This document shows, one piece after another, positions 9,901-27,994 of a stretch of 34,357 nt of DNA. Location of the stretch: positions 1 through 34,357 of the forward strand of contig DASZQL010000159.1 in the NCBI GenBank assembly GCA_035549675.1, read 5' to 3'. The notes under the pieces were generated by a model. It was given only the letters and a program-made list of their open reading frames with translations. It was not told the origin of the DNA and did no database searches. This stretch comes from Phycisphaerales bacterium. Lineage in GTDB: Bacteria > Planctomycetota > Phycisphaerae > Phycisphaerales > UBA1924. Position 1 is the stretch's first letter, and each line of letters opens with the position of its first letter. The position numbers and the translations under genes were made by a program.

Positions 9901-9920
9901 CCGATGTGTGCCCACGTTAA
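936..9920 (+). CDS. Giant secreted RHS/YD-repeat polymorphic toxin (signal peptide, FG-GAP repeats, dockerin-like pairs, YD shell, C-terminal nuclease-like toxin)
   Basis: Uninterrupted 8985-nt ORF with SD-like gagaggga 8 nt upstream. Sec-type signal MNFQTVTRNRRSWSQLLIAGLAALTASHAQA. Many YD repeats (YDGLGR, YDDAGRA, YDRLGRA, YDSFDRV, YDWRGR). Shell entry motif NPVLLSDGIKTEQDEDL. Canonical RHS core end RSRWYDPELGTWLTRDPAGYVDGMCLYRYVRGNPCLYFDPFGL. Confidence 0.95.
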   Translation: MNFQTVTRNRRSWSQLLIAGLAALTASHAQAQLVVPIGHDFDGDDVDDRVVGYPAVGSEVATAGLVRVYDGLTLEPRLNLRSGEPDDAFGLCVASAGDLDGDGANDIIVGAPLHSRIHLYGGAVYIFSGATGQRLERIEGNPSQMIGRAVAGVGDFTGTGVPCYAMSGSQVLPDGSRRGFVQIRVLGTPEPRVVFEADESNDLFGASLVGLGDINADEKADIAIAAELATNSGATSGGIYIFHGLDCVSGCPEIVHTVDAAAYYAAETDMDITAYGCFLLNGTDVDEDGKRELLVVSRGIDSEDRADFVLDSISLDDGQIVAQERSLFLIADGDVNKDGTVAPSDAFLVIQNISSSESVLDWFHTDVNSDGTVDLDDVYRVITSFDEDSPLVVRAGSAAAAGAVAAGTYPPGGLPTCVGWIWIGILPNPNEPQNPEDDFVIPECCIPQDNTWETLDDLLGGCGTPRDPIEPEPDDGIVDPGPPNQGGPIMSGPNPDPDCPTPPCPCHCVRSWRGNCIIVECDHIISYPGNPPTIRPKDPRTPSPNPRGPRGNESRADTTNDSNDSVSNPELDRHGPGESTCNPVLLSDGIKTEQDEDLRVALPGRDFVLKRTYSAGSTQDDPRFPSMIGRGWGTSADGWVTFVPTRMDWVSIEADESNAFVDALEVVAFPVEGSTKLFVSEDDPNRFDTLAPSLTHGWRAAARVRGVLVPVWLIETSGHGQTVYYRTSARENGEGTLSEELQSLDGRILQERDEFGNAFTYQYMSLTDSDGHAARPRLKRLFLGGETESTCKAKIEFVWDLGTESAPGSGRLTEAKVLRPQGSSWVTMQSARYTYVGDLDFGDRSAVGNNVNQLAAVRQRVRLDAGDAPGEGSWYARGYHYRYHHSMSHGPALLTHVFEPESIEYFAEHWAAISADSQDESIAMAINKLIEHHNLSEAVGGSGSPTVSELASKEIQYYSSGDSAPGYDEGSLEGLVRSEILHRGCSCSGGQSSKTEFEYAQRAIQDVERVHESAGGTVTMHPIRMSKLTIRRDSVWRDGQWQEHQIVRNWSEDRLFGLGWGTFGIPATFDHPFSVTVHILRWVPVPFVVANEVEDPATDRVWRTYFEFENHNPVRKFNASAIASFETTSAGLLNYADTNDDPGATADPKEAVNFNEGGVLELSQFDDFGQKTAEAVARISSIGEPQDEILLRELEYLSDNEGDRPDLLIRTTEFRTDEVSGPREVREYQYQFDHTSGMRRSQVAQSACIEQRETQQQHGPPGSGEVVRASGFTGAGDTAWTRSGDGSFTVMTYDTLTGAMTSTVRNAPITDALPSPSFGIAASGDRSADGGQLLTVREVDLAGRPRSVTDESGNETIFDYITEPVFTYATLGQVASTPTLTASNQHYLRVTSTPPTGVGPVSRQWANAGYQVLRSSSYVPGSGLEIGRVIYQYDSRGQHRETRTWHDIAGDLSNLEQYEYDGLGRLIRTISATGHVAETDYDSFDRVIETRQGSAVGSMQLVERNFYDHTGTLASPHQGVGDGLLTLTQRFASGSDIRSTVSIYDWRGRKRLSYLAGSSAITPAKGAYVAEVLDNLGRPVEQATVSGEQSLSSLIGSLQDDELTSFTEFLATPNHPVERVRALSYGPRGLVFEDTDSFRNDGGVLSRTTRHWLDDEGRELVAVGPDGPVVKKQYDGLGRVTTTITTDGAAARSTSSPSFAAVTAMEPTTEVTFERTSSLFDGRGLPVLDRVEQRRHDLTDSTKGIGGSPVKQLAATVYDGVAKPIATVRYGSGLQSGSASDSYASGGGTDAVPLTAVPTRGPGRIITETHYDDAGRATESVDPRGIVSRMIYDDAGRAVATIDNVSDQSGGDPVSVTRDSDGLWSVVNRPTSEHPEQDDRNRVVSMVYDGDGNITHRIAHKPATSGDERQVTEYVYQCPGTTSLEGGGGSVTNGALSNKLLYEVRYPNPGTGLPSITPEDTVRYAYNRLGERLGALDQNGTLIRYQLDEAGRILSETATCSSPSIDAESNRIATAYDRLGRASTMSMTDDGMSIHSQMAIDYDGLGRITRVRQSPFGSITHVATTAVDYQYDGTTSAGQLVHDRLIEMAYPAWSPESYRPVQTIAYGSEASSSDRISRITGFSWTRGGAVGSTDIIGSASHEYLGLARRVVSKFQKATGGMLVRDRWVDADTGAHTSGSYEGLDQFGRVRRQLWTLGEPINPSASGSRPPLVRLDYAYDDGGNTLSRLTRRAGSSGAATPLRDELNTFDGLNRLTESHRGEVSQIGRGSEQWVLDQLGNWTTCRRATLVAGGSYNRVEGREFNATNEIKNTEITGTDAPSQRLFEYDHAGNLVGQRILDALDDEGEFAAQRWKRFTYDPWNRLVKVEIERRAGALVEGPRKTVAAYTYYAGNQRATKTWRANRSADSLFFSDDDDGESDPPGYVDTPDRRSTYIYDRDWHLLEERTEGYNAGQRGENSLASPYAGPWGWGPGGSFAAAPDEEALRVNRYLWDPTQWDEFVQFRSLHAESSGSSQTVVEDERRWALTDRNHTVIGLVDDAAVTASASSIVPEQLQRNRYSPYGRAEREWAADVDGDGRINITDLNKIADATDMTLAADGSSGEYIPGADVDSDGTIGTTDLFHATTVLALGTDPFDLDDPLHTDPIGPGGVHAVEDGSLWRSYCTIGYSGSLYDQHARLWLMRSRWYDPELGTWLTRDPAGYVDGMCLYRYVRGNPCLYFDPFGLFSFGEYWSDIKAGAAELVARIPNALTGAATGAATGAATGAAVGAGVGLVAGAGVGAAPGAVAGAAAGATGGAIGGFISGLMADSSTPVTEVMKQAAIDGVAAGITGGVSGPLLGGTSGTAAAMTTTGTVVPVAASTVQASAQAAAATAAAAGIMAAKTQGPATSQTTPSTTGEGAKGGTYTMVDPETGNVVRSGRTNDLSRRQKELGRDPNTKHLEFREDMRTDNYNTQRGREQKLHDYYNPPLNKINPISPMNPNRQKYMDAAPDVCPR
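1047..1835 (+). other. FG-GAP / integrin-alpha-like beta-propeller repeat region of the RHS protein
   Basis: Repeated Ca-binding-like DxDxDG motifs followed by hydrophobic strands: FDGDDVDDRVVGYP, AGDLDGDGANDIIVGAP...GGAVYIFSG, GVGDFTGTGVPCYAMSG, LGDINADEKADIAIAAE...GGIYIFHG, GTDVDEDGKRELLVVSRG. Confidence 0.7.
1926..2090 (+). other. Dockerin/EF-hand-like repeat pair 1
   Basis: DGDVNKDGTVAPSDAFLVIQNI ... TDVNSDGTVDLDDVYRVITSF. These are two DxNxDGxV Ca-loop plus helix units, as in type I dockerins. Confidence 0.6.
8646..8825 (+). other. Dockerin/EF-hand-like repeat pair 2, inserted inside the C-terminal RHS core region
   Basis: DVDGDGRINITDLNKIADAT ... GADVDSDGTIGTTDLFHATTVLALG. It lies between the YSPYGRAE motif and the GYSGSLYD...RWYDP...DPFGL core terminus. 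Confidence 0.6.
8931..9107 (+). other. RHS-associated core terminus with predicted autoproteolysis motif (DPFGL)
   Basis: GYSGSLYDQHARLWLMRSRWYDPELGTWLTRDPAGYVDGMCLYRYVRGNPCLYFDPFGL matches the GY.G...D...GL...R.R.YDP..GRF...DP.G......LY.Y...NP....DP.GL consensus. The Leu codon ends at 9107. Confidence 0.85.
9177..9575 (+). other. Gly/Ala-rich glycine-zipper-like segment of the toxin C-terminal region
   Basis: TGAATGAATGAATGAAVGAGVGLVAGAGVGAAPGAVAGAAAGATGGAIGGFISGLM ... GGVSGPLLGGTSGTAAAM ... AAATAAAAGIMAA. GxxxG/AxxxA periodicity. GC-rich like the host genome. Confidence 0.5.
9636..9917 (+). other. Putative GIY-YIG (URI-fold) nuclease toxin domain
   Basis: GGTYTMVDPETGNVVRSGRTNDLSRRQKELG ... 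RGREQKLHDYYNPPLNKINP. GTY-x11-RSG fits GIY-x(9-11)-YIG with the second Tyr replaced. G.T..L..R supplies the conserved Arg. E..L....Y.P.LN supplies the catalytic Glu and Asn. The DNA here is visibly AT-richer than the rest of the gene. Confidence 0.6.
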
Positions 9921-10395
9921 TAAGTTAGACACAGCTGGATTGGCACCGGAGGGATCGGTCGTCACTGTGCCACTACGAGATCGTGGGTATGGCGTTGGCG
10001 TGATTGCGAGAAATAGCGGCGACGGAATTTTATTAGTTTATTTCTTCGGCATTCGGCTCGACGCCAACGACCTACCAATTGATTGGTCGACGATCAAACC
10101 TAGCGCCGCAATTTGGGTTCGACTTGTCGGAGATTTGGGCTTGCTGAATAACGCTTGGAATGTAATTGGCACAGTAAATCCATGGAGTCGTCTCGAATGG
10201 CCCATGCCTCCACTAGCAAGGTATGTTGATGGCATTGGATATTATAAATCATTTTATGATGATAATACTCTCGATAAAATTCGGGAAGTTCGTATTACTG
10301 AGACAGAAGCAAAGCAATTTTGGGAAGACGGCATGAGCGGTTATGTGGCGGCCGAAATAGCGCTGACCAAGCGACTCAGCAGACTAGCTCCATAA
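9892..10395 (+). CDS. Putative cognate immunity protein for the RHS C-terminal toxin
   Basis: 167-aa ORF (alternative ATG at 9904). It overlaps the RHS stop codon (9918-9920) and shares the reduced GC of the toxin tip. Lying immediately 3' of a polymorphic toxin is the canonical immunity position. I recognise no family. Confidence 0.6.
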   Translation: MQPPMCAHVNKLDTAGLAPEGSVVTVPLRDRGYGVGVIARNSGDGILLVYFFGIRLDANDLPIDWSTIKPSAAIWVRLVGDLGLLNNAWNVIGTVNPWSRLEWPMPPLARYVDGIGYYKSFYDDNTLDKIREVRITETEAKQFWEDGMSGYVAAEIALTKRLSRLAP

Positions 10396-10473
10396 ACAAG
10401 TAATCTCCTTCGTCCTTTATCTTGCTAAGGGCATTGGCATGTGGGATAGAAGCCCTCCATACCGTAGCTGGTT

Positions 10474-10643
10474 GCATCGAAGTTTTCCATGCCGTGCCAT
10501 CGAAGTCGATCGGAACCTTCGACGATTGGGCAAAGCCGATGGCGAAGAAACACCCTGTGCGCGGACCGACGTTGACGGCGCGGTTCACACTCGATGAGAG
10601 AACGGTAGACATCGAAGTCGGCGGAACCGACTTCGATGGCACG
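10474..10643. repeat. REP-like palindromic repeat cluster A (degenerate hairpin 10493-10530 plus perfect hairpin 10610-10638)
   Basis: CATCGAAGTCGG-CGGAA-CCGACTTCGATG has a 12-bp perfect stem. It abuts the RAYT stop codon (10644-10646). An upstream 27-nt block CCGACGTTGACGGCGCGGTTCAC(A/C)CTCGA is also present in cluster C with one variable position. Confidence 0.85.
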
Positions 10644-11202
10644 TCACACGAATCCCTTCCACTTGTCCCACGAACCCGGCTTTCCCGGCGGCGGGTCGCA
10701 CTCCAGCTCGCTTTCGCGGCGTCCCATCCACCAGCGAACGCTCGACCACTTCCAGTCTTCGGGCCGCTCCACCAGGCCACGTTCGACGGGGTTGCGGTGG
10801 ATGTACCGGACCTCGCGGCAGAACTCGCTCAGGTCGCGGACGTTGCGGTCGAAGCCGCCGCCCTTCTGCCAGAAACGAGGGCGGCCGGTCGCGTCCTTCA
10901 GCCGGTTCAAGATCGGCGAACTGTCTCGGCACCACCGCCCGAGCGCGCGCTGGGTGATCGACATCTTGATCGACCAGAGCACACGCTTCATCGTCACCCG
11001 TTCATCGGGCCGGCAGAGCAGGTGCACATGCTCGGGCATGATGACCCAGGCAAAGAATCTCGAGGTTGAACTTGCGGCGAGCGTGTGCGAACCGGGCTAC
11101 GAGCGCATCGGCGATCCGCGGGTTGGTGGTGAGGAGGGGCAGTCGCTTCTGACAGGAGAAGGTGATGAACCGAACGCCGCCCGGGATCTCGTACCGGCGC
11201 AT
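10644..11202 (-). pseudogene. REP-associated tyrosine transposase (RAYT, IS200-like Y1/HUH transposase) with a 1-nt frameshift
   Basis: C-terminal frame: MPEHVHLL (HUH motif) ... YIHRNPVERGLVERPEDWKWSS (catalytic Tyr motif). N-terminal part, in another frame: MRRYEIPGGVRFITFSCQKRLPLL...ARRKFNLEI. The two frames join at about 11052-11057. Removing one T from CTTTG restores FNLEILAWVIMPEHVHLL. The span is 559 nt = 3n+1. Flanked by REP hairpins on both sides. Confidence 0.8.
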
Positions 11203-11334
11203 GCGTTTCCGAATGGGCTCCCCGGGGGTCACGCGGGTACGATATCGGTCGGGCGATGGATAGGAGACGTGTCGAACGGGCGTGCCATGGACAACCACCT
11301 CGGGACTTGGACGGGTGCGACTGAGGACGAAGAA

Positions 11335-11410
11335 CATCGAAGTCGCCGAGCCGACTTCGATGGCACGATTGACACCGTGACCGCCGAGGAACATCGATGC
11401 CACCCGCCCG
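11335..11410. repeat. REP-like repeat B (hairpin 11335-11362 plus conserved right flank)
   Basis: CATCGAAGTCG-CCGAGC-CGACTTCGATG followed by GCACGATTGACACCGTGACCGCCGAGGAACATCGATGCCACCCGCCCG. That flank is nearly identical to 12545-12592 (3 mismatches by eye). Confidence 0.8.
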
Positions 11411-11449
11411 TACGACTCTGTATGGAATGTGATACCGGCGGCTGCACAC

Positions 11450-11471
11450 CCGCCGAGTTTCAACTCGGCGG
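11450..11471. repeat. Perfect 10-bp inverted repeat upstream of the RAYT pseudogene
   Basis: CCGCCGAGTT-TC-AACTCGGCGG. No T-run follows on either strand, so it is not an obvious intrinsic terminator. Confidence 0.5.
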
Positions 11472-11606
11472 CATTCAGATAGATACTGCGTTCAGGTTCG
11501 GTCTAGCCTGGGGTATCGTAGAATATAGATGTCGTTCACGTTATATGCCTCTTAGTGATTCAATAACTATCACCGAGTGATTGATTAATGATTGCCTGAT
11601 GACAAC

Positions 11607-11900
11607 ATGAACAATACGAACGAGCTGTTTTTTGCCGACGCATTCGGCGCCGAACGAGATTTCTTCCAGGCCAAGTGGCACGGGAAAACTGTGCATATGG
11701 AACCCACGCGACGGGGCTCGCCGTTCGTTTGGATTGCTGTCGTGGTGCTGCCGTGGCTCCTCGCAGAGGGCGTTCTTTGGGTTCTTCGATATGTGACGGT
11801 GCACCACCCTGCTCAGGCTGGGGGAATTAACTACGGCATGATGGCACCTGTCCTGCGAGTATCTGCGGCCTGCTTAATGGCATTTTGTCTTTATCTCTAA
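11607..11900 (+). CDS. Small predicted two-TM membrane protein (orphan cassette 2)
   Basis: ATG at 11607 (the track ORF starts at TTG 11592). Two hydrophobic helices: SPFVWIAVVVLPWLLAEGVLWVL and MMAPVLRVSAACLMAFCLYL. AT-rich upstream region. No family recognised. Confidence 0.45.
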   Translation: MNNTNELFFADAFGAERDFFQAKWHGKTVHMEPTRRGSPFVWIAVVVLPWLLAEGVLWVLRYVTVHHPAQAGGINYGMMAPVLRVSAACLMAFCLYL

Positions 11901-11915
11901 TGGCTGCAAACATCT

Positions 11916-12314
11916 GTGTGGCGGCGAAAAGAGCCCGTTGTCATCGCAGCACCGTCGATAGGCCAGTTCAGGCATATTCCTTCAGGCCAGTCCTGGGCTA
12001 TTGCCGACATCGCGAAGTTCATATTCACGAGCGGCTGGGTTCGCGATCCAAGCCGGGGTGAACGAACCCACTATGCGCTGCAACAATGGACGATTGTTTT
12101 TCGTACACCCAGCCACGAATCGCAACTGAGCGTCCTGCTCACCGAAATTGGATTGGGGATACGATTTCGTCGCGGCGTAAAAAAGATCGCACGCGCCTGT
12201 AACATCCAGATCGAATACCGACGTGTGCCCTTGAAGGATTCTCCCGACCGTGCCGAATGTAAGCTTTTATTCGGTGACACTCTCGACATGGCGCGAACGT
12301 GGGGCCATCGCTAG
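11916..12314 (+). CDS. Hypothetical protein (orphan cassette 2)
   Basis: 132-aa ORF with a GTG start 15 nt after the preceding stop. Reduced GC relative to the genome. No family recognised. Confidence 0.4.
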   Translation: MWRRKEPVVIAAPSIGQFRHIPSGQSWAIADIAKFIFTSGWVRDPSRGERTHYALQQWTIVFRTPSHESQLSVLLTEIGLGIRFRRGVKKIARACNIQIEYRRVPLKDSPDRAECKLLFGDTLDMARTWGHR

Positions 12315-12337
12315 CCTAGTAGCCACCTCGGCCGATG

Positions 12338-12592
12338 GTATCGAAGTCCTCCATTTCGTTCCATCACAGTCCGGCGGGTGGCATCGCATTCCGGCATCGT
12401 GCCATCGAGTTCCGCTGGGGACTTCGATGGTTGGGCGGAGCCGAGGGCAAAGAAGCATTGAGTGCGCGGGGCCGACGTTGACGGCGCGGTTCACCCTCGA
12501 CGGGAACGAGGGAGACATCGAAGTCGGCGGAACCGACTTCGATGGCACGATTGACACCGTGATCGCCGAGGAGCACCGATGCCACCCGCCCG
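12338..12592. repeat. REP-like palindromic repeat cluster C (degenerate hairpin 12398-12435, perfect hairpin 12516-12544, right flank to 12592)
   Basis: The 29-nt hairpin CATCGAAGTCGGCGGAACCGACTTCGATG is identical to copy A. It shares the left block with A and the right flank with B. It fills the intergenic gap between 12314 and 12614. Confidence 0.85.
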
Positions 12593-12613
12593 AAGGTTGC
12601 AAGGGGAACTAGT

Positions 12614-13057
12614 ATGAACGACGCATGGTCGTGGAAGCTTTCCGATCAGGGGTATTCCGTTCGAATCGACTGCGACAGCCGAGTGTCCTATGCGTACTTA
12701 CTAAAAGGCACAGCATTTGTTGGTGACGTGTGGCTAACCAACACAGATTATGATCCGGACGAGATCCCTTGGGATACAAGCCATCAGGAGATGCCGTTTC
12801 GCAATCCTAAAGAATACACTATCTCTCACGAACCATTGATTGATCCAAATCCAGATGACTTTGTATTTTATTCTTGGCATGACAAAGGTTCCTTACGTGT
12901 GGCCATTTTGTACCTCGGACAACCGCTCGCCATTTTGGGCGACGGCATCAAGCCTGGTTGGTGTGTGTTTGCAAAAAAACGAGGGCCATTGGCTCAGCCA
13001 CTTCTTATCGATGTTCGGCGCAATAACCAAGACAGACCGCCCGACACAACGAGCTAA
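12614..13057 (+). CDS. Hypothetical cytoplasmic protein, candidate orphan immunity protein (cassette 3)
   Basis: ATG preceded by aagggga (SD) at good spacing. Clearly AT-richer codons than the genome. 147 aa, Trp/Asp-rich, no TM segment. No family recognised. Confidence 0.65.
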   Translation: MNDAWSWKLSDQGYSVRIDCDSRVSYAYLLKGTAFVGDVWLTNTDYDPDEIPWDTSHQEMPFRNPKEYTISHEPLIDPNPDDFVFYSWHDKGSLRVAILYLGQPLAILGDGIKPGWCVFAKKRGPLAQPLLIDVRRNNQDRPPDTTS

Positions 13058-14251: not shown

Positions 14252-14336
14252 TAGGCCCGGAGGGACTTGAACCCTCACTCCCCTTGCGGGAAAGGGGATT
14301 TTAAGTCCCCTGCGTCTGCCATTTCGCCACGGGCCT
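14252..14336 (-). tRNA. tRNA-Leu (anticodon UAA), class II with long variable arm
   Basis: Minus strand: AGGCCCG TG GCG AAATGGCAGA CGC A GGGGA CTTAAAA TCCCC T-TTCCCGCAAGGGGAGT GAGGG TTCAAGT CCCTC CGGGCCT A. It has a 7-bp acceptor stem, a GG in the D loop, a TTCAAGT T-loop and anticodon TAA. CCA is not encoded at the 3' end. Confidence 0.85.
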
Positions 14337-14377: not shown

Positions 14378-15151
14378 TCAACCGGCGCGGGCCTCGGTTT
14401 CGACTTCTTCCATGTACCGACCGGTCAGGCCCTCTTCGCGCAAGACTTCGGCGTGCGGCATGTGCGTCGCGCGCATCACGCCCTTCAAGTGCGGCTTCAC
14501 CATCTCGCGCATCCGCGCCTGCTGCTCGACGATCGGGAGCGTCGCGTCGATCACGGATAAGCCGAACTCCGGCACCATCGACTCGTACTCGTTCAGGATT
14601 CGGCCCTGGAAGAGCTCGAAGCTCTTGTATGGGTCTTCGCTGAGCCGCAGGTCCATGCCCGCCTCGTACCACTTGAGCTCGGGGCGGCCTGACAGAATCC
14701 GGTCGAGCGCTACGTCGAGCGGAACGCGGAAGTAGAACGCCGCGGTGGGCTTGGGGGCCATGCGGTAGATGCGTCGGACGTATTCGCGGTCCATGCCACG
14801 GGCGGAGTCGCGGGCGAAGGCGGTGTAGATGTAGCGGTCAGCGAGGACGACGGCGCCCGCGCGGAGCGGCGGGAGAATGGTCCGCTCGAGGCGGTCCGTG
14901 AAGTCCGCTGCGTGGATCAGCGAGAACGTGAGCGGGCTCAGGAGCCGCTCCACCTTGCCCTTGCGCGTGGTTTCACGCACCAGCGGCGAGCTGTTCCACT
15001 CGCTGAAGTAGCAGGCATAGCCCTGGGCGGTCAGCCACTTCGAGAGGAGGTCGAGCTGCGTGCTCTTGCCCGAGCCGTCGATCCCTTCGACGATGAAGAG
15101 TTTTCCGGGGAGCGAGCCGAGGTCGGCGTACTGGCTGAAATCCGAAGGCAT
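14378..15151 (-). CDS. Thymidylate-kinase-like P-loop kinase, paralogue A (intact Walker A)
   Basis: ATG at 15151 (the track ORF extends to 15187). Walker A VEGIDGSGKST. Tmk-like AADFTDRLE...LRAGAVVLADRYIYTAFARD. Differs from housekeeping Tmk (DRY..S..AYQ) and carries a ~45-aa C-terminal extension. Confidence 0.75.
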   Translation of the reverse strand: MPSDFSQYADLGSLPGKLFIVEGIDGSGKSTQLDLLSKWLTAQGYACYFSEWNSSPLVRETTRKGKVERLLSPLTFSLIHAADFTDRLERTILPPLRAGAVVLADRYIYTAFARDSARGMDREYVRRIYRMAPKPTAAFYFRVPLDVALDRILSGRPELKWYEAGMDLRLSEDPYKSFELFQGRILNEYESMVPEFGLSVIDATLPIVEQQARMREMVKPHLKGVMRATHMPHAEVLREEGLTGRYMEEVETEARAG

Positions 15152-15312
15152 GGCTGAACATCCTGCGAAAGAACGCCGCCGCCCCACTGGCGACGATCGT
15201 GCGAATCACACAGTATGCCCGAAGCCGGGCGCGATGGAACGGACGCCCGGTTCGTCTGAAATACCCGTCATCCGGCTGCCGCGGCGTCGCACCGACAAGA
15301 GAGCGGAACAGC

Positions 15313-17019
15313 TCACTGCGGCTGGTGCGGCAGCCCGGATAATCGGCCGCCCTGGCGGGGCGAAGGCATGTCCGCCCGAGCTTCAGCCGCGCCGTTTCGA
15401 GACACCGACGCGCTGCCGCTCCCGGCCCATTCGAATCGGGGCGAGAGGCCGACGTACCGACGGAATAAGCCGCTCTTTCGTTCGGCGCCCCAGATATCGA
15501 CGGCCGGATTGTCCTTCGCGCCGACGGAAAGGACGACTTCCTCGTCGCGCACGCTGACGGTGACGCCGGCGACGTTCTGCGTGTGCGTGCGGTCGAGTCC
15601 GTCGGCGATCCGCAGGATGCCCGAGAGCTTGCGCACGAGGCGCCGGTCTCGCTTCGGCAGCTTGGCGAACGTCGGGTGATCGAGAGTGGGTTCGGCGCGG
15701 CGGTGGTACCTCGCGATGTTGGCGATCAACTCGAGCTCGCGGTGGCTGAACCCGGCGATGTCGCTGTGCACGATGAGGTGATAGCTGTGCTTATGGTGGC
15801 GCGAGTAGTTGATGAGATAACCGACGTCATGAAGGATCCCCGCCGCGAGGAGCAGGTCGCGCGCGGAGCGATCGTTGCATCCTTCCAGCGATTCCGACGA
15901 CTGCTCGACGATCTGGTCGAACAGTTGCATCGCCAGGTCGGCCACATGGTTCGAGTGGGCTTCCTCGTACCGGCAGGCCGTCGCGAAATGCTTGAGCGCC
16001 CGCCAGCGGTCCACCATACCCGGCGTCGCGCCGCTGCCGTTGGGCATGCGCTCGGCGATCATGGTCAGCAGCAACCCGTCGCGGATACCGCGGTCATGAA
16101 CCTTGAGGGTGTTCACTTTGAGGCGCCTCATCGCGCGCTCGACGATGGCGAGGCCCGGCACGATGATCTCGGCCCGGTCGGCGCTGAGACCGGGCACCCG
16201 GAGCCGCTGGCGCACGGGCATCTGGTCGAGCCAGTCGAGAATGTGCCGGACTTCGGAGCGCTGGATCTCGTAGCCGCGGGGCGTGAACGGGAGCATGTCG
16301 GGACCCGTGCCGGTCGCGCCGCGGTGCATCGAGATCGCCGCGAGGGTGGTGAAGGTGCCGCCGGTCCCGATCAGGTACTGCGGCGAGAACGCCGGCTGGC
16401 GGATCCACTCTTTCATCGTCTTTTTGATCGCCCGGTCCATGTCCTCGAGCGCGCCGACGTCGCCCGTCGTGCAACCCGGGAACCGCTCCGCGACGCGGAC
16501 CGCGCCGAGGGGCACGGTGAAGACCTGCTCGACGACGCCGCCGGAGGCGAGGACGATCTCCGTGCTCCCGCCGCCGACATCCGCGATCGCGACGTTCGCA
16601 TCATGCAGGTCGAACGAGTGTGCCACGCTGAGGAAGGCGAGCCGCGCTTCGTCCTCCGCCGAGATCGGCTCGATCGGGATCCCGGCCCGCTCCTGCACGA
16701 GACCCAGAAACTCATCGCGGTTCTTCGCCTCGCGCACGGCGGCGGTGCCGATGGCGCGGATGACGTCCGCGCCGTACCCCTCCGCGATCCCGCGCATCCG
16801 TTCCACCGCCGAGGAGGCCTTCTCCATCGCCTCGGGGCTCAGGCGTCCGCTGGCATCGAGCCCCTGCCCGAGCCGGGTGATTTCCTTCTCGTCATCGAGA
16901 ATGCGATAGCTGCCGTCCGCGGCGACCTCCGCGACGATCAGGCGGATACTGTTGGTGCCGACGTCGATCGCGGCGAGGCGCATGAACTCTCCATCGGCCG
17001 GATGTGTTCTGGAGTTCAC
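15313..17019 (-). CDS. ppx: Ppx/GppA-family exopolyphosphatase / pppGpp phosphohydrolase with C-terminal HD domain
   Basis: ASKHA-fold motifs AAIDVGTNSIRL, DVGGGSTE, IGTGGTFTT. HD region ILHDVGYLINYSRHHKHSYHLI. GTG 17019 overlaps the CHAD stop (GTGA). Alternative ATG at 16983 (MRLAAIDVG). Confidence 0.9.
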   Translation of the reverse strand: MNSRTHPADGEFMRLAAIDVGTNSIRLIVAEVAADGSYRILDDEKEITRLGQGLDASGRLSPEAMEKASSAVERMRGIAEGYGADVIRAIGTAAVREAKNRDEFLGLVQERAGIPIEPISAEDEARLAFLSVAHSFDLHDANVAIADVGGGSTEIVLASGGVVEQVFTVPLGAVRVAERFPGCTTGDVGALEDMDRAIKKTMKEWIRQPAFSPQYLIGTGGTFTTLAAISMHRGATGTGPDMLPFTPRGYEIQRSEVRHILDWLDQMPVRQRLRVPGLSADRAEIIVPGLAIVERAMRRLKVNTLKVHDRGIRDGLLLTMIAERMPNGSGATPGMVDRWRALKHFATACRYEEAHSNHVADLAMQLFDQIVEQSSESLEGCNDRSARDLLLAAGILHDVGYLINYSRHHKHSYHLIVHSDIAGFSHRELELIANIARYHRRAEPTLDHPTFAKLPKRDRRLVRKLSGILRIADGLDRTHTQNVAGVTVSVRDEEVVLSVGAKDNPAVDIWGAERKSGLFRRYVGLSPRFEWAGSGSASVSRNGAAEARADMPSPRQGGRLSGLPHQPQ

Positions 17020-18104
17020 GCACGAAGACCCTGCACGGCGCCGTGATACTCATGGGACGCCGCTGCACCGTCCACCACGACGACGGGCTCGATGCCCCCG
17101 GCGATGTCGCCCCGCCCGTTCGGACCGTCGCCCAGAAGCTTGGAAACCGCCGTCGAAAGCTCGGGCTCCGCGATGGTTCCCCACCAGCGGATGAACGATG
17201 TCCGGGCGGCGTCGCGTTCGGAACGGAATCGGACCGCGAGCGAGGCTAGCCCGTCGTGCAGCGTCGCGGCTCCGCCGGTTTCGCCCGAGGAAACGATCGG
17301 CGTCGGCAACGATTCGCTCGCCGCCCGGCGCCAGCTCTGCTCAAGCCAGTCCATCGCGTCGTGCATGTCGTTGATGACACCGAGCCGGTCCTGGATGCCG
17401 ACGATAAGCCCGTGCGCCCGCTCGACATCCGCTTCGTCGAAGCAGTCGCGGAAAATCTCGATCGCGTACCGGAGCCGCTTGCCCTCGATGCGCAACTCAT
17501 GCAGGTTGTCATAGACGCCCAGATCGGTGGCGCTGGTGGCCCGCATGGCGTTGAACAACCGCGGGATCTCGCGCTCGGCGACTTCGCCGGCGGTGGTGAT
17601 GTCGCCCGCTTCATCGACAGGCGCGTTGCGGAGCAAGCGTTTCCCGACGCGGGCCAGCTTCTTTCTCGCTTTGCCCCGGCACGCCTTCGCGATGCCCTCC
17701 AACGCGGTTTCACGCTCGCGCTCGAGCCCCTCGACCGCGTAGTCCAGCGCCGCGGCGTCGCCGCCTGCTAGCCCCCCGCGCCGCTCCTTGTACAGGTCCA
17801 TCAGCACGTCGCAGCGCCGCACATTCCCCGCGGCCCGGCGGATGCGCCGCAGACGGCGGTTCATCTTCTTCACGCGCCCGCGCCTGAGGCATCCCGCGAA
17901 AGCCGCGATCGCTGTTCCCGCCCGGCGGGTCGCCACGCGAACATGGTGAACGTCCCGGTCACTGGGGTTGTCGCCCGCGCGATCGAGCTGTTCCATCAGC
18001 TCGACGAGCGAATCCAGCCGGGAGCCGACGGCCTCGTGCAGGGCATCGCCGATGCTCATGACGGGCTCGATGGAGGGATTGTCCTTCTTCGGCTGCTGGC
18101 TCAC
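17016..18104 (-). CDS. CHAD (conserved histidine alpha-helical domain) protein, predicted polyphosphate-binding
   Basis: DVHHVRVATRRAGTAIAAF, LHELRIEGKRLRYAIEIF and LGVINDMHDAMDWL are typical CHAD helices. GTG 18104 overlaps the upstream stop (GTGA). Alternative ATG at 18059. The part of the track ORF upstream of 18104 overlaps the preceding gene and is Arg/Pro/Gly-rich. Confidence 0.8.
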   Translation of the reverse strand: MSQQPKKDNPSIEPVMSIGDALHEAVGSRLDSLVELMEQLDRAGDNPSDRDVHHVRVATRRAGTAIAAFAGCLRRGRVKKMNRRLRRIRRAAGNVRRCDVLMDLYKERRGGLAGGDAAALDYAVEGLERERETALEGIAKACRGKARKKLARVGKRLLRNAPVDEAGDITTAGEVAEREIPRLFNAMRATSATDLGVYDNLHELRIEGKRLRYAIEIFRDCFDEADVERAHGLIVGIQDRLGVINDMHDAMDWLEQSWRRAASESLPTPIVSSGETGGAATLHDGLASLAVRFRSERDAARTSFIRWWGTIAEPELSTAVSKLLGDGPNGRGDIAGGIEPVVVVDGAAASHEYHGAVQGLRA

Positions 18105-18883
18105 GGGCGCGCTCCCGTCATGTTTCCCACCACAGAAAGCACGCCATCCGATAGCGATTTGAACACGGTGCGAACATCGCCGTCGGCGTCCACCACCGAG
18201 AACTTGTACCGCTCGGAGAGGTCGTCGAAGACCGCGAGCAGCCGCGTCTGGTAGCGGACGAACGACTGGTAGACGTCGTGCTCCTCCTGGAAGTCCATCC
18301 CGGACTCCCAGTAGTCGAACCCACCCGCGGCCATGACGCGCTGGGTGAGCTTGGGGAGGCTGATCTTGAGATAAAAGACCGCGTCGGGACGGGGCGCGAA
18401 GCGATAGACATCGCGGATCCACTCGGGGTCACCGCCGCGGACGATGGAGCGCGCCATCATGGAATAGACGTAACGATCGGCGAGCACGACGAAGCCGGCC
18501 CGGAGCGCCGGGATGATCTCGTTTTCAAGCCTGTCGGCGAAGTCAGTGGCGTAATAGAGGTCCATGGTGAGGCGGCCGAGGGTGTGGCCCTCCTTCGCCT
18601 GCCTGAGTCCCTCGCCGGCCAACTGGCTGCGGGTGAGGGCGGTGTGGGCGACGCCGAAGCCGCGCGTCTCGAGCCACTCGCGCAGGAGCGCAAGCTGGGT
18701 GGACCGGCCCGCGCCGTCGGTCCCCTCGACCGCGATCAGTCGGCCGGGCAGCGACGAGATGTCCGCCGCATCGCCGCCGTTGATCTGGATGTCGGCATCC
18801 GCGCCGCCGCGACGAAAACCCGCCTCGGAGCGGTAACCGCTCGAGTTCGAGTGCGCTTCGACCGCGGCCTTGAAACTGGGCAT
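18101..18883 (-). CDS. Thymidylate-kinase-like P-loop protein, paralogue B (Walker A Lys replaced by Arg)
   Basis: VEGTDGAGRST (Arg codon at 18704-18706) where paralogue A has GIDGSGKST. Otherwise colinear with A (ATDFADRLE, LRAGFVVLADRYVYSMMARS). ~45-aa N-terminal extension. Confidence 0.75.
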   Translation of the reverse strand: MPSFKAAVEAHSNSSGYRSEAGFRRGGADADIQINGGDAADISSLPGRLIAVEGTDGAGRSTQLALLREWLETRGFGVAHTALTRSQLAGEGLRQAKEGHTLGRLTMDLYYATDFADRLENEIIPALRAGFVVLADRYVYSMMARSIVRGGDPEWIRDVYRFAPRPDAVFYLKISLPKLTQRVMAAGGFDYWESGMDFQEEHDVYQSFVRYQTRLLAVFDDLSERYKFSVVDADGDVRTVFKSLSDGVLSVVGNMTGARP

Positions 18884-18968
18884 GAATTCGAGGCTCCGTC
18901 ACGGGCGCGGATGGGCCAACGGCGGCATTGTAGCGACGCCGGGCGAGGCCGCCCCGGACACTCCAATT

Positions 18969-18997
18969 GTTAAGAAAAACGGCTGAATTAGCGTCAA
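18969..18997 (-). promoter_or_regulatory. Candidate sigma70-type promoter for the Tmk-like/CHAD/ppx operon
   Basis: Minus strand TTGACG (18997-18992), 17 nt, CTTAAC (18974-18969), in an AT-rich patch. A TACAAT also lies at 18932-18927. Motif match only. Confidence 0.2.
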
Positions 18998-19028
18998 AAT
19001 AACGCGAACAACCCCCGATCGAGGGCGT

Positions 19029-19859
19029 TTACGCGCTGTTCAATGCCGACTGAGTGGATGGGCGGTGGATATCCGTGAACACCTCGTTGGAGGGCCCCGT
19101 CTCGCGGAGTGCGGCGAAGGTCAGGCTGACGGCGATGTTCCGCAGGAGGCGCGAGCGGACCTCGGGTCGCGAAACACGCTCCGGCGCGGGGATGACCTGA
19201 CGGACGGACCCGATCGGACCCGGCACTGCCCCCCGGCGGCTGGACCATTCGAGCAGGCCCCAACCGCCGGGCATCTCGCGCGGCTTGATCAAGCCAGGGA
19301 CTGTGAGCAGGTACAGCCGGTCGGCGACGCGGTACTGGCTCATCAGGAAAAACTTCGTGTCGCCGTGAATGCCTTGCTCGACGCGGCGGAGCGCGCGGAC
19401 GACTTCGCGGTACGCGGCGAGGCGGCTGCGCTCGAAGTCCCACGATTCGAGCTCGCTGAAGAGCGCGCTGCCGGAGCGCTGCAGATGCGGCTCGTAGTGG
19501 CGGATGAGGTCGCGCTCGATGCGGGATTTCTCCGCGGTCAGGCGGGTGCGCTCGTCGATGAGACGGTCGCGCTCGGCGGTCTCCCGGAGGAAGTCGCTCC
19601 GGCACTGCTTGCACTCGATGACGACGGTGACGGGATCGATCTTTTCGCGCCGGGGGCGCGATGGGGCCGCGCCGCCCCACAGTGTTCCGCTGCGCTGGCG
19701 CTCGTCGCGCGTCGGGCGGCGGACATCCATGTAGCCCGCGGCGTCGGCGCGGTAGCGCGAGAGCGGGCAGCGCACTTCCGTCGCGGCGGCGGAACATCCG
19801 TGCTCGATGAGAAACCGGAGCGCCGCGCGCTTCAGGTCCGCGTGCCTGCTGGATTCCAT
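19029..19859 (-). CDS. PD-(D/E)XK nuclease-fold protein, MmcB-like, with inserted helical region
   Basis: ATG 19859 (MESSRHADLKRAALRFLIEHG). Motifs TEVRCPLSRYRADAAGY ... VVIECKQCRSDF (D...ExK). Later ADRLYLLTVPGLIKPREMPGGWGLLEW resembles the MmcB C-terminal block. A ~90-aa charged helical insert lies between them. The track ORF upstream of 19859 overlaps phoU. Confidence 0.45.
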   Translation of the reverse strand: MESSRHADLKRAALRFLIEHGCSAAATEVRCPLSRYRADAAGYMDVRRPTRDERQRSGTLWGGAAPSRPRREKIDPVTVVIECKQCRSDFLRETAERDRLIDERTRLTAEKSRIERDLIRHYEPHLQRSGSALFSELESWDFERSRLAAYREVVRALRRVEQGIHGDTKFFLMSQYRVADRLYLLTVPGLIKPREMPGGWGLLEWSSRRGAVPGPIGSVRQVIPAPERVSRPEVRSRLLRNIAVSLTFAALRETGPSNEVFTDIHRPSTQSALNSA

Positions 19860-19938
19860 GACGCACCACCCTCGACCAACGCACGCACCATCCGTGTGCG
19901 AGCGGCGGGAGTGTAGGCGCGCCCCGGCGGTGCGCGGC

Positions 19939-20619
19939 TCAAACGGGGGCGTGGCGGACGACCTCACCCTCGACGACGAAGATCACCGACTCGGCGATGT
20001 TGGTGCTCAGGTCGCCGATCCGCTCGAACGCCCGGACCACCGAGAGAAGGTCCACGATCGACTTGGCGTCCTTCGAGTGCTCGGCGACTTCCTGAACGGC
20101 CCAGGTCACGATGGCCTTGTAGAAATCATCGACGTGCCGGTCCTCGCCCCGAACGTGCGCGGCGAGCGAGGCATTCCCCTCGGCCAGCGCGCGGATCGAG
20201 TTGCCGAGAATCGTCTGCGCCGCCTCGGCCATGTCGCGCAGAACATCGGGGTAGGCGATCGGCGTCTGCTTGCCCATCGCGATCACGCGCTTGGCGATCC
20301 CCTTGGCGAGGTCGCCCACGCGCTCGAGGTCCGCTTCGATGCGCAGGGCCGCGACGACGAACCGCAGGTCGCCGGCGACCGGCTGCTGCAGGGCGAGGAT
20401 CTCGAGGCACTCGGACTCGATGTCGATGTCCATCCGATCGATCTCGGCGTCACCCGTTTTGACCGTCTTGGCCAGGACTTCGTCGCGCTCGAGCAGGGCC
20501 TTCGTCGCCTTGGCGACGCGGCCCTCGACGCTCGCGCACATCGTGAGTAACGCCCGGCGGAGGTCCATCATCCGCTCGGACAGGTTCTGCGACATCCAGT
20601 CAGCATTCGACACGGGCAT
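19939..20619 (-). CDS. phoU: Phosphate signalling complex protein PhoU
   Basis: Two PhoU repeats (DAEIDRMDIDIESECLEILALQQPVAGDLRFV...EADLERVGDLAKGIA and DRHVDDFYKAI...RAFERIGDLSTNIAE). Lies directly downstream of pstB. Confidence 0.9.
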   Translation of the reverse strand: MPVSNADWMSQNLSERMMDLRRALLTMCASVEGRVAKATKALLERDEVLAKTVKTGDAEIDRMDIDIESECLEILALQQPVAGDLRFVVAALRIEADLERVGDLAKGIAKRVIAMGKQTPIAYPDVLRDMAEAAQTILGNSIRALAEGNASLAAHVRGEDRHVDDFYKAIVTWAVQEVAEHSKDAKSIVDLLSVVRAFERIGDLSTNIAESVIFVVEGEVVRHAPV

Positions 20620-20634: not shown

Positions 20635-21513
20635 TCAACCGAACCGCCCGGTGACGTAATCCTCGGTTTCCTTGTGCTTCGGCCGGGTGAACATATCGAC
20701 CGTCCGCCCGGACTCGATCAACCGCCCCTCGTAGAAAAAGGCGGTCATGTCGGAAACACGGGCGGCCTGCTGCATGTTGTGGGTGACGATGACGATCGTG
20801 TACCGCTCGCGGAGCTCGCGGATCAGGTCCTCGATGCGGAGCGTGGACTTGGGGTCGAGGGCCGAGGCGGGCTCGTCCATCAGCAGGACTTCGGGACCGA
20901 CCGCGATGGCCCGGGCGATGCACAGCCGCTGCTGCTGACCGCCGGAGAGGGCCAGCGCGGAGTTGCCCAGCCGGTCCTTCACCTCGTCCCACAACGCGGC
21001 CTGCCGGAGCGATTTCTCGACCAGCTCGTCGAGCTCCGAGCTGGTCATCCGCAGGTGAAGGCGCGGGCCGAAGGCCACGTTGTCATAGATGGACTTGGGG
21101 AACGGGTTGGGCTTCTGGAACACCATCCCTACGCGGCGGCGGAGGTCCACCACGTCGAGATTCGGGTCCATGAGGTCGATGCCGTGCAGGTCGAGCGAGC
21201 CTTCGGCGCGGGCGCTGGGGATGAGGTCGTTCATCCGGTTGATCCAGCGCAGGAAGGTGGTCTTGCCGCACCCGCTGGGACCGATGAGCGCCGTCACCCG
21301 GCTCGTGGCGATCTCGATCGACACGTCGCGGAGAGCCTGGTGCGTGCCGTACCAGCCGCTGAAGCCCTGGAAGCGGATCGCGGTCGCCGTGGTCGCCTGC
21401 TCGCCGCGCGAGGCCTCGGCCCGGGCCGCGATGGACGACAGCGGATTCGGCGGGGCGGGTGGGTGCGTCACGGGCCTCTCACGGGTTGGTTTCTCTTCAA
21501 CGAGCTGGGTCAT
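20635..21513 (-). CDS. pstB: Phosphate ABC transporter ATP-binding protein PstB
   Basis: Walker [10 protein letters not shown], signature LSGGQQQRL, Walker [13 protein letters not shown]-loop [11 protein letters not shown] 21513 overlaps the pstA stop (ATGA). The rest of the 694-aa track ORF is a shadow extension. Confidence 0.95.
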
Positions 21514-22784
21514 TGGAGCTGCTTCTGGGCTTTCTGCCGGATGATCATCGCGGCAACATTGAACAGAATCAACACGCCGAGCAGGACGAGAATCCCGGTC
21601 GCGGCGACCTTGTGGAACTCCTGGTTGGGCTGGCTGGCCCAGTGGAAGATCTGCAGCGGCATGACGGTGAAATCTGACATCAGGTTGCGGGGCGTGTAGA
21701 GAATGAACACCACGCCGCTGACGACGAGGAGCGGCGCGGCCTCGCCGATGGCGCGGCTCAGCGCCAGGATCGACCCCGTCATGATGCCGGGCACCGCCGA
21801 GGGAAGCACCATCGTGGAGATCGTCTGCCAGCGGGTCGCGCCGAGCGCCAGCGCGCCCTGGCGCAGCGAATCGGGCACCGCACGGAGCGCCTCCCGCGAC
21901 GCGATGATCACGATCGGCAGCACGACGAGCGCGAGCGTCAGCCCGCCCGCCAGCACCGTGCTCCCCATCGGCAGGCGCAGGTGGTACCACGCGTGCTCGT
22001 CGCCGAAGCTCAGCATGTTTTGCGTCTTCCACGAGCGGACGCGGGCGGCGTCGAGCACGACCTCGTCGTTCTTGCCGTCCGGCCGGTCGGCCGCGACGCG
22101 GATCGACGGGCGCTCGGACGAGAGCAGGTGGCCCGTCACAGTCGAGCCGTCGTCGAGCGTGAACTCGAAGGAGCGGGCGAAGACCACATGGCGGCTCGTG
22201 ATGTCGGCCCTGTTGATTTCCACTTCGCCCGCTACCGGGTCCCGCAAGCGCAACTGATCGTCCGTCTCCTCCTGCAGGAACGCCTGGATCGGCGCAGGGC
22301 GGCCCACCGCTTCGATCACTTCCATGCGGTCGTAAGTGGAGAGATTCGGGCTGCCCAGAAGGCCGAAGACTCGGGCGAAGACCGTGAGACCGATGATGCC
22401 GTAGACGATCGACGGGACACCGGCAAGATTGCTCACGTTGAGCTGGAATAGCCCATGAACGTGTCGCCAGAGGCGCGTCCTGGGCTTGTACTCCTCGAGC
22501 AGGATCGCCGTCGCAACCCCGACCGGCACGGCAACCGCCATGCAGATGACGCACACCCACACCGACCCCCACAGGGCGGCCTTGAGCCCCGCTTTCGCCG
22601 GGAACCGTGACGCGAAGCCGGTGAAGAAACCGAGGTCGAGATACTTCCAGCCTTGCACGGCGATCGCGCCGATGAGCACCGCGAGCAGGGCGCAGCACAG
22701 GCACGTGATCAGCAGGCATCCGCGGCTGAACCAGCGGTCCACGCGCCGCCGTTTCGCGATCGACTTCGCCCGTTCGCCCGCCAT
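21510..22784 (-). CDS. pstA: Phosphate ABC transporter permease PstA (long form with ~120-aa inserted loop)
   Basis: TM helices plus EAA-type motif [27 protein letters not shown]. An extra non-hydrophobic segment (aa ~146-268) sits between TM helices. Confidence 0.9.
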
Positions 22785-23806
22785 CAGTGGTACACCTCGC
22801 GGTAGCGGAGCATTACGCGGTGCCCGATGACCGTCAGCACGAAGGTCATGACAAAGAGCGTCGCCGCGACGGCGTAACTGGAGAGATACTCGACGCCGTG
22901 CGCCGGGGCGTCGCCGAGGAAGATCTGCACCATGTAGCCGGTCATGGTCTGGACTTCATCGCGCGGGTCGAGCGTGAGCCGCGCGAGGCCTCCCGCGGCG
23001 AGGGCGACGATCATCGTCTCCCCCACCGCTCGCGCGATCGCGAGCAGATAGGCGGCGATGATCCCCGAGAGCGCCGCCGGCACGACCACCTTGGTCGAGA
23101 CGTCGAACCGCGTGCACCCGACGGCGTAGGCGCCCTCCCGCAGACTCCGCGGCACGGCGCGAAGCGAATCCTCCGCCAGCGAGCTGACGATCGGCAGGCA
23201 CATGATCCCCACCGCGATCCCGGCGCCCAGCGCGTTGTATGCGCTGATGGGCTTGGTGATCCACTCGTAGAGGTCTTCCGGAAGCCACGTGAGCGCCGGC
23301 GCGGCCCGCATCACGATGTTGTCGTGCAGCCACTGCAGGGCGGGCGTGATGGCGATCAGCGCGAAGTAGCCGTAGACGACCGTCGGGATGCCGGCGAGGA
23401 GCTCGAGCACGGGCTTGAGCACCGCGCGGAGCCTGGCCGGTGCGTACTCGCTGAGGTAGATCGCCGTCGCCAGACCGAAGGGGAGCGCCACCACCGCCGC
23501 GACGGCGGTCACGACCAGCGTGCCGCAGACCAGCGGCCAGATTCCAAAGTGCTTCTCCGCGCCGAGAAGGGGCGACCATTTGGTCCCGAAAAAGAAATCG
23601 GTGACGCTGGCTTCGGGCCGCTGGAAGAAAGCGACCGTCTCGACCAGGAGAACGGCAATGATCGAAACGGTGATGAGCGCCGCGAAGACGCCGCACACCC
23701 CGAGCACGACCATCACGCCCGTTTCCCGCGCGCGGAGCAGACCCCTCGACCGCCGTCGCGGTTTGGCAGGGACAGCGGCCGCGGTGGGTGCGGGGAGTGT
23801 GCTCAT
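22784..23806 (-). CDS. pstC: Phosphate ABC transporter permease PstC
   Basis: Multi-TM protein. Motif [26 protein letters not shown]. The stop overlaps the pstA start by 1 nt (TGATG). Confidence 0.9.
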
Positions 23807-24902: not shown

Positions 24903-25078
24903 GCCGACGATTCCTTTCGGTTGGTGAAGTCCAAGAGGGATTCAGATCGCGCCCGGCGGGTAGTAGACAAACCGATTGTTTGGATTGCGCTAAGACTGTG
25001 TTGGCACTTGGCAAGGCCGCCGACGGGCGACGCCGCCGTCGGAAGCGGTGATTCGGCCGCTTCCGCGGCAGTTTCCTC

Positions 25079-27224: not shown

Positions 27225-27226
27225 CC

Positions 27227-27994
27227 TCAACCTTCCGTCGCTGGCCGGTCGTCGGAAACGCGATACCCCACGCCGCGGACCGTCTCGATCACCTCGCCAT
27301 AAGACCCCAGGCGCTGCCGGAGCGCCGCGACGTGGACGTCGATCGCACGGCTCGAGAGCACGGTCCCATCGCCGCGGACGGCGCTGACGATCTGGTCCCG
27401 GGTCCGGACGAAGCCGGGCCGCACCGCGAGGAAATGGAGCAGGTTGTACTGCGTGAGCGTGAGGTCCAGCGCCTTGCCGTCCACGGTGACGATGTGCCGA
27501 GCGTGGTCGATCGCGATGGCACCCCCGGAAAGGGTGAGCGTCGAACCCGCCGCGACCTCGCGCCTGCGGAGCACCGCCTTCGCCCTCGCCACAAGCACGC
27601 GCGGGCTGAAGGGCTTGGTGACGTAGTCCTCCGCCCCCAGTTCAAGGCCCACGACAATGTCCGATTCTTCTCCCCGCGCCGAGACCATGAGAATCGGGAT
27701 CGTTCCGGTCGCTGGATCGCGCTTGAGTTTGCGGCAGACATCGAGCCCATCTAAATCGGGCAGCATGATGTCCAGAACGATGAGATCGGGCTTCGCCTGC
27801 TCGACCATCTTCAAGGCTGCGCGCCCGGTGGTGGCGATCTGAGCTTGGAATCCCTCGCGCGTCAGGTGGAACTGAATAAGCGACGCGATATCCGGCTCGT
27901 CCTCTACAATCAGGACGTGCCGTCGGGTGGATGACAGATTCCGCGTCTGCGTGGGCGACAGAGCCGTCATGAGCGACAGTTTAATTCCTCTCAT
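27227..27994 (-). CDS. phoB: OmpR-family response regulator (PhoB-like)
   Basis: Receiver VLIVEDEPD...LIVLDIMLPDLDG...KPF. Winged helix LTLTQYNLLHFL...VDVHVAALRQRL...IETVRGVGYR. Start ATG 27994 or 27970. Confidence 0.85.
   Translation of the reverse strand: MRGIKLSLMTALSPTQTRNLSSTRRHVLIVEDEPDIASLIQFHLTREGFQAQIATTGRAALKMVEQAKPDLIVLDIMLPDLDGLDVCRKLKRDPATGTIPILMVSARGEESDIVVGLELGAEDYVTKPFSPRVLVARAKAVLRRREVAAGSTLTLSGGAIAIDHARHIVTVDGKALDLTLTQYNLLHFLAVRPGFVRTRDQIVSAVRGDGTVLSSRAIDVHVAALRQRLGSYGEVIETVRGVGYRVSDDRPATEG

Follow-up and report, generated by a model that had tools for sequence, protein, structure and literature searches.

The window analyzed here is a whole 34,357-nucleotide (nt) stretch of contig DASZQL010000159.1 (assembly GCA_035549675.1) from a Phycisphaerales bacterium of the Planctomycetota, and the genes at positions 14378-18883 within it most probably form a planctomycete PPK3 operon, which joins a known enzyme family and does not represent a new type of system. 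We place at about 80% the probability that this locus encodes a bacterial family-3 polyphosphate (polyP) kinase together with accessory proteins. Homology would predict the kinase activity, a complex between two thymidylate kinase (Tmk)-like proteins that we call A and B, an inactive B, and Pho control. In the older biocatalysis literature, the name PPK3 appears to denote a different, PPK2-type enzyme. In the sense used here, PPK3 is the heteromeric polyP kinase of Sulfolobus acidocaldarius, which arose from two exapted dTMP kinase paralogues (Hofmann et al., J Biol Chem 2026, PMC12995831). In that system (SaPPK3), Saci_2019 (cPPK3) and Saci_2020 (rPPK3), both annotated as thymidylate kinases, make up a reversible heterotetrameric enzyme, and their operon has the order SixA-PPX-cPPK3-rPPK3-CHAD (PMC12995831). 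An earlier, sequence-only reading of this DNA had pointed to such a Sulfolobus enzyme made of two Tmk-like subunits encoded next to ppx, correctly as it turns out, and had proposed that a heteromeric Tmk-fold polyP kinase, or a polyP-dependent nucleotide kinase, is built from A and B and operates with CHAD and PPX. The match to SaPPK3 in sequence, profile, tree, and neighborhood supports that proposal by analogy. Its further supposition that a bacterial version linked to CHAD was undescribed does not stand, as the Sulfolobus operon itself has CHAD and bacterial operons with PPX, CHAD, SixA, and Pst genes have been reported (PMC12995831).

On the minus strand, the genes follow the order that had been read from the sequence, with the open reading frames (ORFs) at the expected positions (lengths in amino acids [aa] or nt):

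18101-18883, minus strand: B, rPPK3-like regulatory-type subunit (260 aa; Tmk fold, P-loop GTDGAGRST, Arg60 in place of the Walker-A Lys)
17016-18104, minus strand: CHAD-domain protein, a polyP-binding module (362 aa from a GTG; start overlaps the B stop)
15313-17019, minus strand: Ppx/GppA-family exopolyphosphatase, long form including domain III/HD (568 aa; GTG start overlaps the CHAD stop)
15152-15312, minus strand: spacer between PPX and A (161 nt)
14378-15151, minus strand: A, cPPK3-like catalytic-type subunit (257 aa; P-loop GIDGSGKST, SEWNSS, DRY, lid residues R151/R156/K160, GLTGRY tail)
14252-14336: tRNA-Leu(UAA), downstream of A

Pfam finds Thymidylate_kin in both A (9.6e-20) and B (1.3e-22), CHAD in the second gene (1e-34), and Ppx-GppA (8e-59) plus domain III/HD in the third. 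The CHAD domain is described as a specific polyP-binding module (PMC6537752). Both of the proposed 4-nt GTGA start/stop overlaps can be read directly, at 18104-18101 (B/CHAD) and at 17019-17016 (CHAD/PPX). For PPX there is an alternative start at ATG 16983, with a GGAG 5 nt upstream; because relatives carry Arg or Lys where this ATG falls, the upstream overlapping start would be the one used in them. The longest ORF of A spans 14378-15187, and its start is most likely ATG 15151, because the resulting 257 aa fits homologues of 253-258 aa. The spacer between PPX and A therefore comes to 161 nt, in agreement with the first estimate of about 160; no significant RNA structure (z = +1.0) was found in it, nothing in Rfam matches it, and it lacks a sigma-70 consensus promoter. 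B, which lies 3 kb upstream of A on the same strand, shares 43% identity with it across 195 aa (E 7e-55), so the identity of roughly 40% estimated by eye was close. The terminal extension of about 45 aa that had been ascribed to each holds for B, where it is N-terminal; that of A is C-terminal and shorter, at about 35 aa, and a GLxGRY motif is conserved in it.

The assignment of A rests on several kinds of comparison. Its best solved relative is the cPPK3 homologue of S. tokodaii, STK_15430/ST1543 (PDB 2plr, 5h70; E 3e-52, 180 bits), and true Tmks score about 1e-14 or weaker in the same PDB search. We compared 80 related loci from GTDB species genomes along with the S. acidocaldarius locus (L081). 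With E. coli Tmk as the root of neighbor-joining (NJ) trees, the full tree put A and Saci_2019 into one clade with every A-type protein (80/80). In a 55-taxon subset, A, Saci_2019, and 25 other A-type proteins (27 in total) were monophyletic in 194 of 200 bootstraps, so that the phylogeny with Tmk and the Sulfolobus pair, which had been suggested as a check, places A with Saci_2019. Subfamily profiles, built excluding the window and its three closest relatives, agree: A scores 362 bits against the A-type and 219 against the B-type profile, and Saci_2019 scores 268 against 198. E. coli Tmk reaches only about 45 bits with either. Column statistics were drawn from 80 A-type and 78 B-type proteins, with the window's own A and B included. 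A holds K29, D105-R106-Y107, R114, R118, R151, R156, K160, and R215, positions that are 94-100% conserved in the A-type. Across this type, the Walker-A Lys, SEWNSS, DRY, and R114/R118/R151 vary little or not at all, and R156, K160, R126, and R215 are conserved. In the Sulfolobus enzyme, conserved basic residues of cPPK3 line the polyP cleft (PMC12995831). A can thus be classed, by its sequence features, as a catalytic-type PPK3 subunit. The nearest homologues of both A and B come from metagenome-assembled genomes (MAGs) of Planctomycetota and Phycisphaerae.

The C-terminal tail of A (residues ~225-257, window positions 14378-14480) carries a motif, GL(T/S)GRY(L/I/M), that is also seen in Planctomycetota, Chloroflexota, and Actinomycetota (L001-L007, L015, L020, L023, L024, L029, L035) and is absent from the acidobacterial (Acidobacteriota), Nitrospira, and archaeal members compared. 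This tail could be a docking element or one that reaches into the active site.

B is correspondingly classed as a regulatory-type PPK3 subunit on the strength of its profile scores and motifs. It scores 320 bits against the B-type profile and 200 against the A-type, Saci_2020 scoring 133 and 91, respectively, and it is more similar to Saci_2020 (98 bits) than A is (75 bits). Its best PDB match is again ST1543 (6e-35). An AlphaFold2 model of B (pLDDT 82, pTM 0.79) matches ST1543 first, with a target-normalized TM-score of about 0.9, followed by canonical Tmks at about 0.8-0.88; in this model residues 1-19 and 26-28 have a pLDDT of <50, and the means of 10-residue blocks stay at <80 up to residue 40. 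The Walker-A position is Arg in all aligned B-type proteins (GxDGxGRS/T; Arg60 in B), and this holds also in Bryobacterales and Nitrososphaerota despite a varied glycine pattern. A TGLTRS-like sequence replaces SEWNSS, the equivalent of R156 is missing, and that of K160 is Asp. B keeps D136-R137-Y138, DRY being present in about 99% of the B-type, and retains R145/R149/R182; Saci_2020, by contrast, has the P-loop GIMSSGKT and DGY. The Lys-to-Arg replacement together with the lost lid residues suggests that B is catalytically impaired, and it may still bind nucleotide.

The same features allow a different account of B, namely, that it is not a dead scaffold and binds nucleotide through its P-loop Arg, DRY, and Arg145/Arg149/Arg182. 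In that case it would either sense the energy charge (ATP/ADP) and switch the complex from synthesis to ATP regeneration and back, or contribute a second, different active site. Because the Walker-A Arg is invariant and DRY nearly so across many phyla and in Nitrososphaerota, the B nucleotide site appears to have been under selection rather than in decay, and the rPPK3 of Sulfolobus has degenerated by a different route. On the other hand, B has lost the basic residues that the catalytic type conserves in its lid, and in P-loop NTPases generally a Walker-A Lys-to-Arg change abolishes phosphoryl transfer. Saci_2020 by itself is, moreover, inactive (PMC12995831). We regard this account as rather unlikely and prefer the one in which B is an impaired regulatory partner of A.

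That either protein might instead be an ordinary or specialized nucleoside monophosphate kinase, acting on dTMP or a modified nucleotide and merely encoded beside polyP genes, is very improbable. Such an assignment would suit the Thymidylate_kin matches in both proteins, the TIGR00041 dTMP kinase scores of 76.9 (A) and 81.3 (B), which fall just under the 83.25 cut-off, and the public annotation of their homologues as "dTMP kinase", a label that we consider mistaken. Indeed, A and B share with canonical Tmk (TIGR00041/PF02223) the fold, the P-loop, the DRX motif, and type-II-like lid arginines; they differ in missing the equivalog cut-off and in having the thymine-recognition segments replaced. 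The motif DRY..S..AYQ had been reported as absent; in fact DRY is present in both proteins, and it is the S..AYQ part that is missing. The Tmk AYQ becomes ARD in A and ARS in B, the Gln giving way to an invariant Arg in both subfamilies; the FYAAR of E. coli Tmk has HAADF (A) and YATDF (B) as its aligned counterparts, and the STQAYQ segment also differs. In Tmk, these residues serve in recognition of the thymine base, and their replacement fits a second substrate that is anionic and not a thymidine compound. Further against a nucleotide kinase stand the conservation of the A-B pair and its PPX/CHAD linkage across phyla and the finding that the closest characterized relatives of A and B are without dTMP kinase activity (PMC12995831). 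Nor is either protein a PPK2: in the profile comparison that had been suggested, Thymidylate_kin matched and PPK2 did not, and at E <= 0.01 Pfam gave nothing beyond Thymidylate_kin for the two proteins except a weak AAA_30 in B. We thus return to the pair as putative PPK3 subunits.

The association of the two genes is widespread. Of the 80 related loci, which represent many phyla, 79 have B adjoining A, the sole exception being cut by a contig end, and B lies directly downstream of A in 76. PPX is found nearby in 52 of these loci, CHAD in 24, and at least one of PstS, PstC, PstA, and PhoU in 17. The B-CHAD-PPX-A order is present in three of the 80 (L001-L003), all Planctomycetota/Phycisphaerae loci, and in four Phycisphaerae-type contigs fetched through close homologues (L083-L086); among the loci compared, it occurs specifically in those of the Phycisphaerae type. 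As the arrangement recurs in these seven other loci, it is not due to chance, and the four-gene linkage, whose conservation the sequence-only reading had left to be checked, is indeed conserved in relatives. The 4-nt B/CHAD overlap recurs in L083, L084, and L085, and in L083 the cassette follows a pst-phoU block. In L084, CHAD and PPX are fused as one 910-aa protein (7276-10008) inside the B-CHAD-PPX-A cassette.

Natural proteins in which B is fused behind A are known from about nine separate clusters at 50% identity, in some cases with the PPX domain III/HD added, and their existence supports a physical association of the catalytic (c-type) and regulatory (r-type) subunits. Fusion examples seen in a single MAG may be artefacts; one of them, P0054, could have arisen in assembly because it is known from a single 3.1-kb MAG contig. 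An AlphaFold2 model of P0054, made from a shallow alignment of only five fusion sequences, has a mean pLDDT of 71 and a pTM of 0.65, the five models ranging from 41 to 71. A MAFFT alignment of the A-B fusion with single-domain homologues stacked the B homologues on the A domain and was not used. Three-way fusions are also seen: P0249, P0253, and P0261 are chains of 650-700 aa that combine c-type, r-type, and PPX domain III/HD regions.

Other architectures place the c-type domain in quite different company. P0281, P0317, and P0327 (1000-1240 aa) join an N-terminal MFS transporter, a c-type PPK3-like domain, and a DUF2252/APH kinase-like domain in membrane-anchored proteins with no described function. 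In P0268 (2575 aa) and P0321 (1610 aa), the c-type PPK3-like domain stands beside an "InPase" pyrophosphatase, P0268 having in addition ART-PolyVal; these features are those of polyvalent proteins of mobile elements.

The bacterial members of the family have been termed "a few taxonomically scattered bacteria", and Planctomycetota are not named in the text of that account (PMC12995831). By homology search, its bacterial range is much wider than that: relatives are encoded in at least 445 matched stretches of GTDB species genomes, 310 clusters of 50% identity reach E <= 1e-30, and 3880 proteins reach E <= 1e-40 against ST1543. The bacterial phyla include Planctomycetota, Chloroflexota, Acidobacteriota, and Nitrospirota.

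The cassette forms the downstream end of a co-oriented phoBR-pstSCAB-phoU block, from which it is set off by one ORF and an intergenic region:

27227-28000, minus strand: phoB-like response regulator
25761-27230, minus strand: phoR-like histidine kinase
23886-24902, minus strand: pstS (with pstC, pstA, and pstB, the high-affinity phosphate transporter)
22784-23806, minus strand: pstC
21510-22784, minus strand: pstA
about 20635-21510, minus strand: pstB
19939-20619, minus strand: phoU
18884-19028, minus strand: intergenic region upstream of B (145 nt, AT-richer; a TACAAT box precedes the ATG by about 40 nt)

The intergenic region is the probable promoter region of the cassette; a scan of its 145 nt for consensus promoters gave no match. 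The 15-mer AACAATYGGNNTGTC occurs in the window only upstream of B and of pstS (18957-18971 and 24966-24980, minus strand), 70-80 nt before the respective start codons. It offers a lead toward a shared Pho-dependent, Pho-box-like element. The pattern was derived post hoc from its two sites, an unbiased comparison of both regions picks a GC-rich segment instead, and it is not obviously shared by relatives. The ORF at 19029-19862 (minus strand, ~277 aa), between phoU and the cassette, matches nothing in Pfam or NCBIfam. None of the 80 related PPK3 loci contains a counterpart of it, and it probably lies outside the PPK3 module. No SixA gene is present at this locus. As had been supposed, neither PPK1 nor PPK2 was found among the ORFs scanned in the 34-kb window, nor was a canonical Tmk.

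By analogy with the Sulfolobus enzyme, A (cPPK3) would catalyze a reversible phosphate transfer that links ATP/ADP with the polyP chain end, and B (rPPK3), an impaired paralogue, would oligomerize with A and activate it. The complex, probably A2B2 as in Sulfolobus, would interconvert ATP + polyP(n) and ADP + polyP(n+1). The CHAD protein would bind the polyP chain or granule and tether or cap the polymer, and the long-form PPX would hydrolyze polyP, releasing inorganic phosphate (Pi). Expression of B, CHAD, and PPX is predicted to be translationally coupled, with A next in the same orientation. Because the cassette lies directly downstream of phoBR-pstSCAB-phoU, synthesis and mobilization of polyP are probably coordinated with phosphate uptake.

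The same neighborhood, which recurs as an adjacency to these genes at other loci, could also be taken to mean that the module is mainly degradative under Pho control, with A/B forming ATP from ADP and PPX releasing Pi from polyP made elsewhere by PPK1 or PPK2. SaPPK3 does have a roughly 50-fold higher specific activity in polyP-dependent ADP phosphorylation; the enzyme is reversible, however, and most PPK3-encoding genomes lack PPK1 and PPK2 while having a separate canonical tmk as the family pattern (PMC12995831). With no PPK1 or PPK2 in the window either, we think a mainly degradative role rather unlikely.

Certain observations weigh against the reading of the locus as a PPK3 operon. The published account ascribes the inactivity of rPPK3 to a lost DRX arginine (PMC12995831), a signature that fits Saci_2020 and is not shown by B or its bacterial and thaumarchaeal relatives; as its DRY is kept, B could retain nucleotide binding or some activity. 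Monophyly of the B-type proteins is unsupported (13 of 200 bootstraps, with a single long-branch E. coli Tmk as the root), and "r-type" is therefore the best description of B. A is likely cotranscribed with PPX, yet a 161-nt gap with a weak terminator-like hairpin in it (15196-15176) separates the two. A separate PPK1 or PPK2 may be encoded in the genome outside the window, or a housekeeping tmk may be missing there. The physiological direction is a further point, as SaPPK3 strongly favors ATP formation from polyP.

Going a step further, one may speculate that the regulatory subunit of bacteria and Nitrososphaerota is a conserved nucleotide-binding pseudokinase rather than a decayed scaffold, in view of its invariant Walker-A Arg and its intact DRY and arginines. 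In Phycisphaerae, the shift of its gene to a place ahead of CHAD and PPX, with translational coupling to them, would then reflect a physical rPPK3-CHAD-PPX-cPPK3 assembly on the polyP granule, which would alternate between making polyP, regenerating ATP, and releasing Pi in response to energy charge and Pho status. We hold this combined proposal to be doubtful.

Elsewhere in the window, positions 936-9920 (plus strand) encode a 2994-aa protein with RHS repeats, FG-GAP, and a dockerin-like domain. A 4-kb stretch at 9000-13000 has a GC content of 0.55-0.59, against about 0.66, and contains small ORFs without a Pfam match. Together, 936-13000 looks like a polymorphic-toxin (RHS) locus with a variable tip and immunity genes.

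For this window, the finding mainly confirms a known system. Its wider interest lies in the fact that PPK3 dates only from 2026, when a single archaeal enzyme served to define it, and that bacterial members were described as rare; a literature search on polyphosphate kinases in Phycisphaerae returned nothing relevant. Links to the phosphate-starvation machinery are frequent in the family. The inference of polyP metabolism from genomes and metagenomes is affected, in that an organism for which neither ppk1 nor ppk2 is scored may be able to make polyP all the same. Outside Sulfolobus, the invariant Lys-to-Arg P-loop of the regulatory subunit is a concrete and testable clue to how the complex is regulated. 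What is new beyond the published account is modest: the breadth in bacteria, the split order in Phycisphaerae, the universal Walker-A Arg of the r-type, and the GLxGRY tail of the c-type.

Among the closest known systems are the PPK3 operons that were predicted for bacteria from phylogeny and neighborhood, with links to PPX, CHAD, and Pst (PMC12995831, Fig. 5/S19). The PPK3 clade there consists chiefly of bacterial Tmk paralogues in neighborhoods with PPX, CHAD, SixA, and PstS/C, and the present locus belongs to the same family, with PPX, CHAD, and PstS/C neighbors and with the c and r subunits both present. With SaPPK3/STK_15430, the locus shares two Tmk-fold paralogues, one catalytic-type and one degenerate, and co-encoded PPX and CHAD; A is 46% identical to Saci_2019, and EWNSS, DRY, and the lid motifs are common to both. 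The two differ in gene order (B-CHAD-PPX-A without SixA, as against SixA-PPX-c-r-CHAD) and in the route of degeneration, B having a Walker-A Lys-to-Arg change with DRY kept where Saci_2020 has GIMSSGKT and DGY. The N-terminal extension of B and the C-terminal GLxGRY tail of A also set the locus apart, as does its long-form PPX with domain III (568 aa, against 411 aa in Sulfolobus). The host is a mesophile-type, GC-rich planctomycete, and the cassette, unlike that of SaPPK3, is embedded in a pst/pho block. A more distant parallel is the two-domain class II PPK2 of P. aeruginosa (PA3455), in which likewise one P-loop kinase module is active and its paralogous partner, itself inactive, mediates oligomerization; that enzyme, however, belongs to another P-loop kinase family, and its modules are fused in one chain rather than encoded by separate genes. 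Finally, the ppk-ppx operon of E. coli, which is connected to the Pho regulon, also co-encodes a polyP kinase (PPK1) and an exopolyphosphatase, but its kinase is unrelated, and it has neither CHAD nor a regulatory paralogue.

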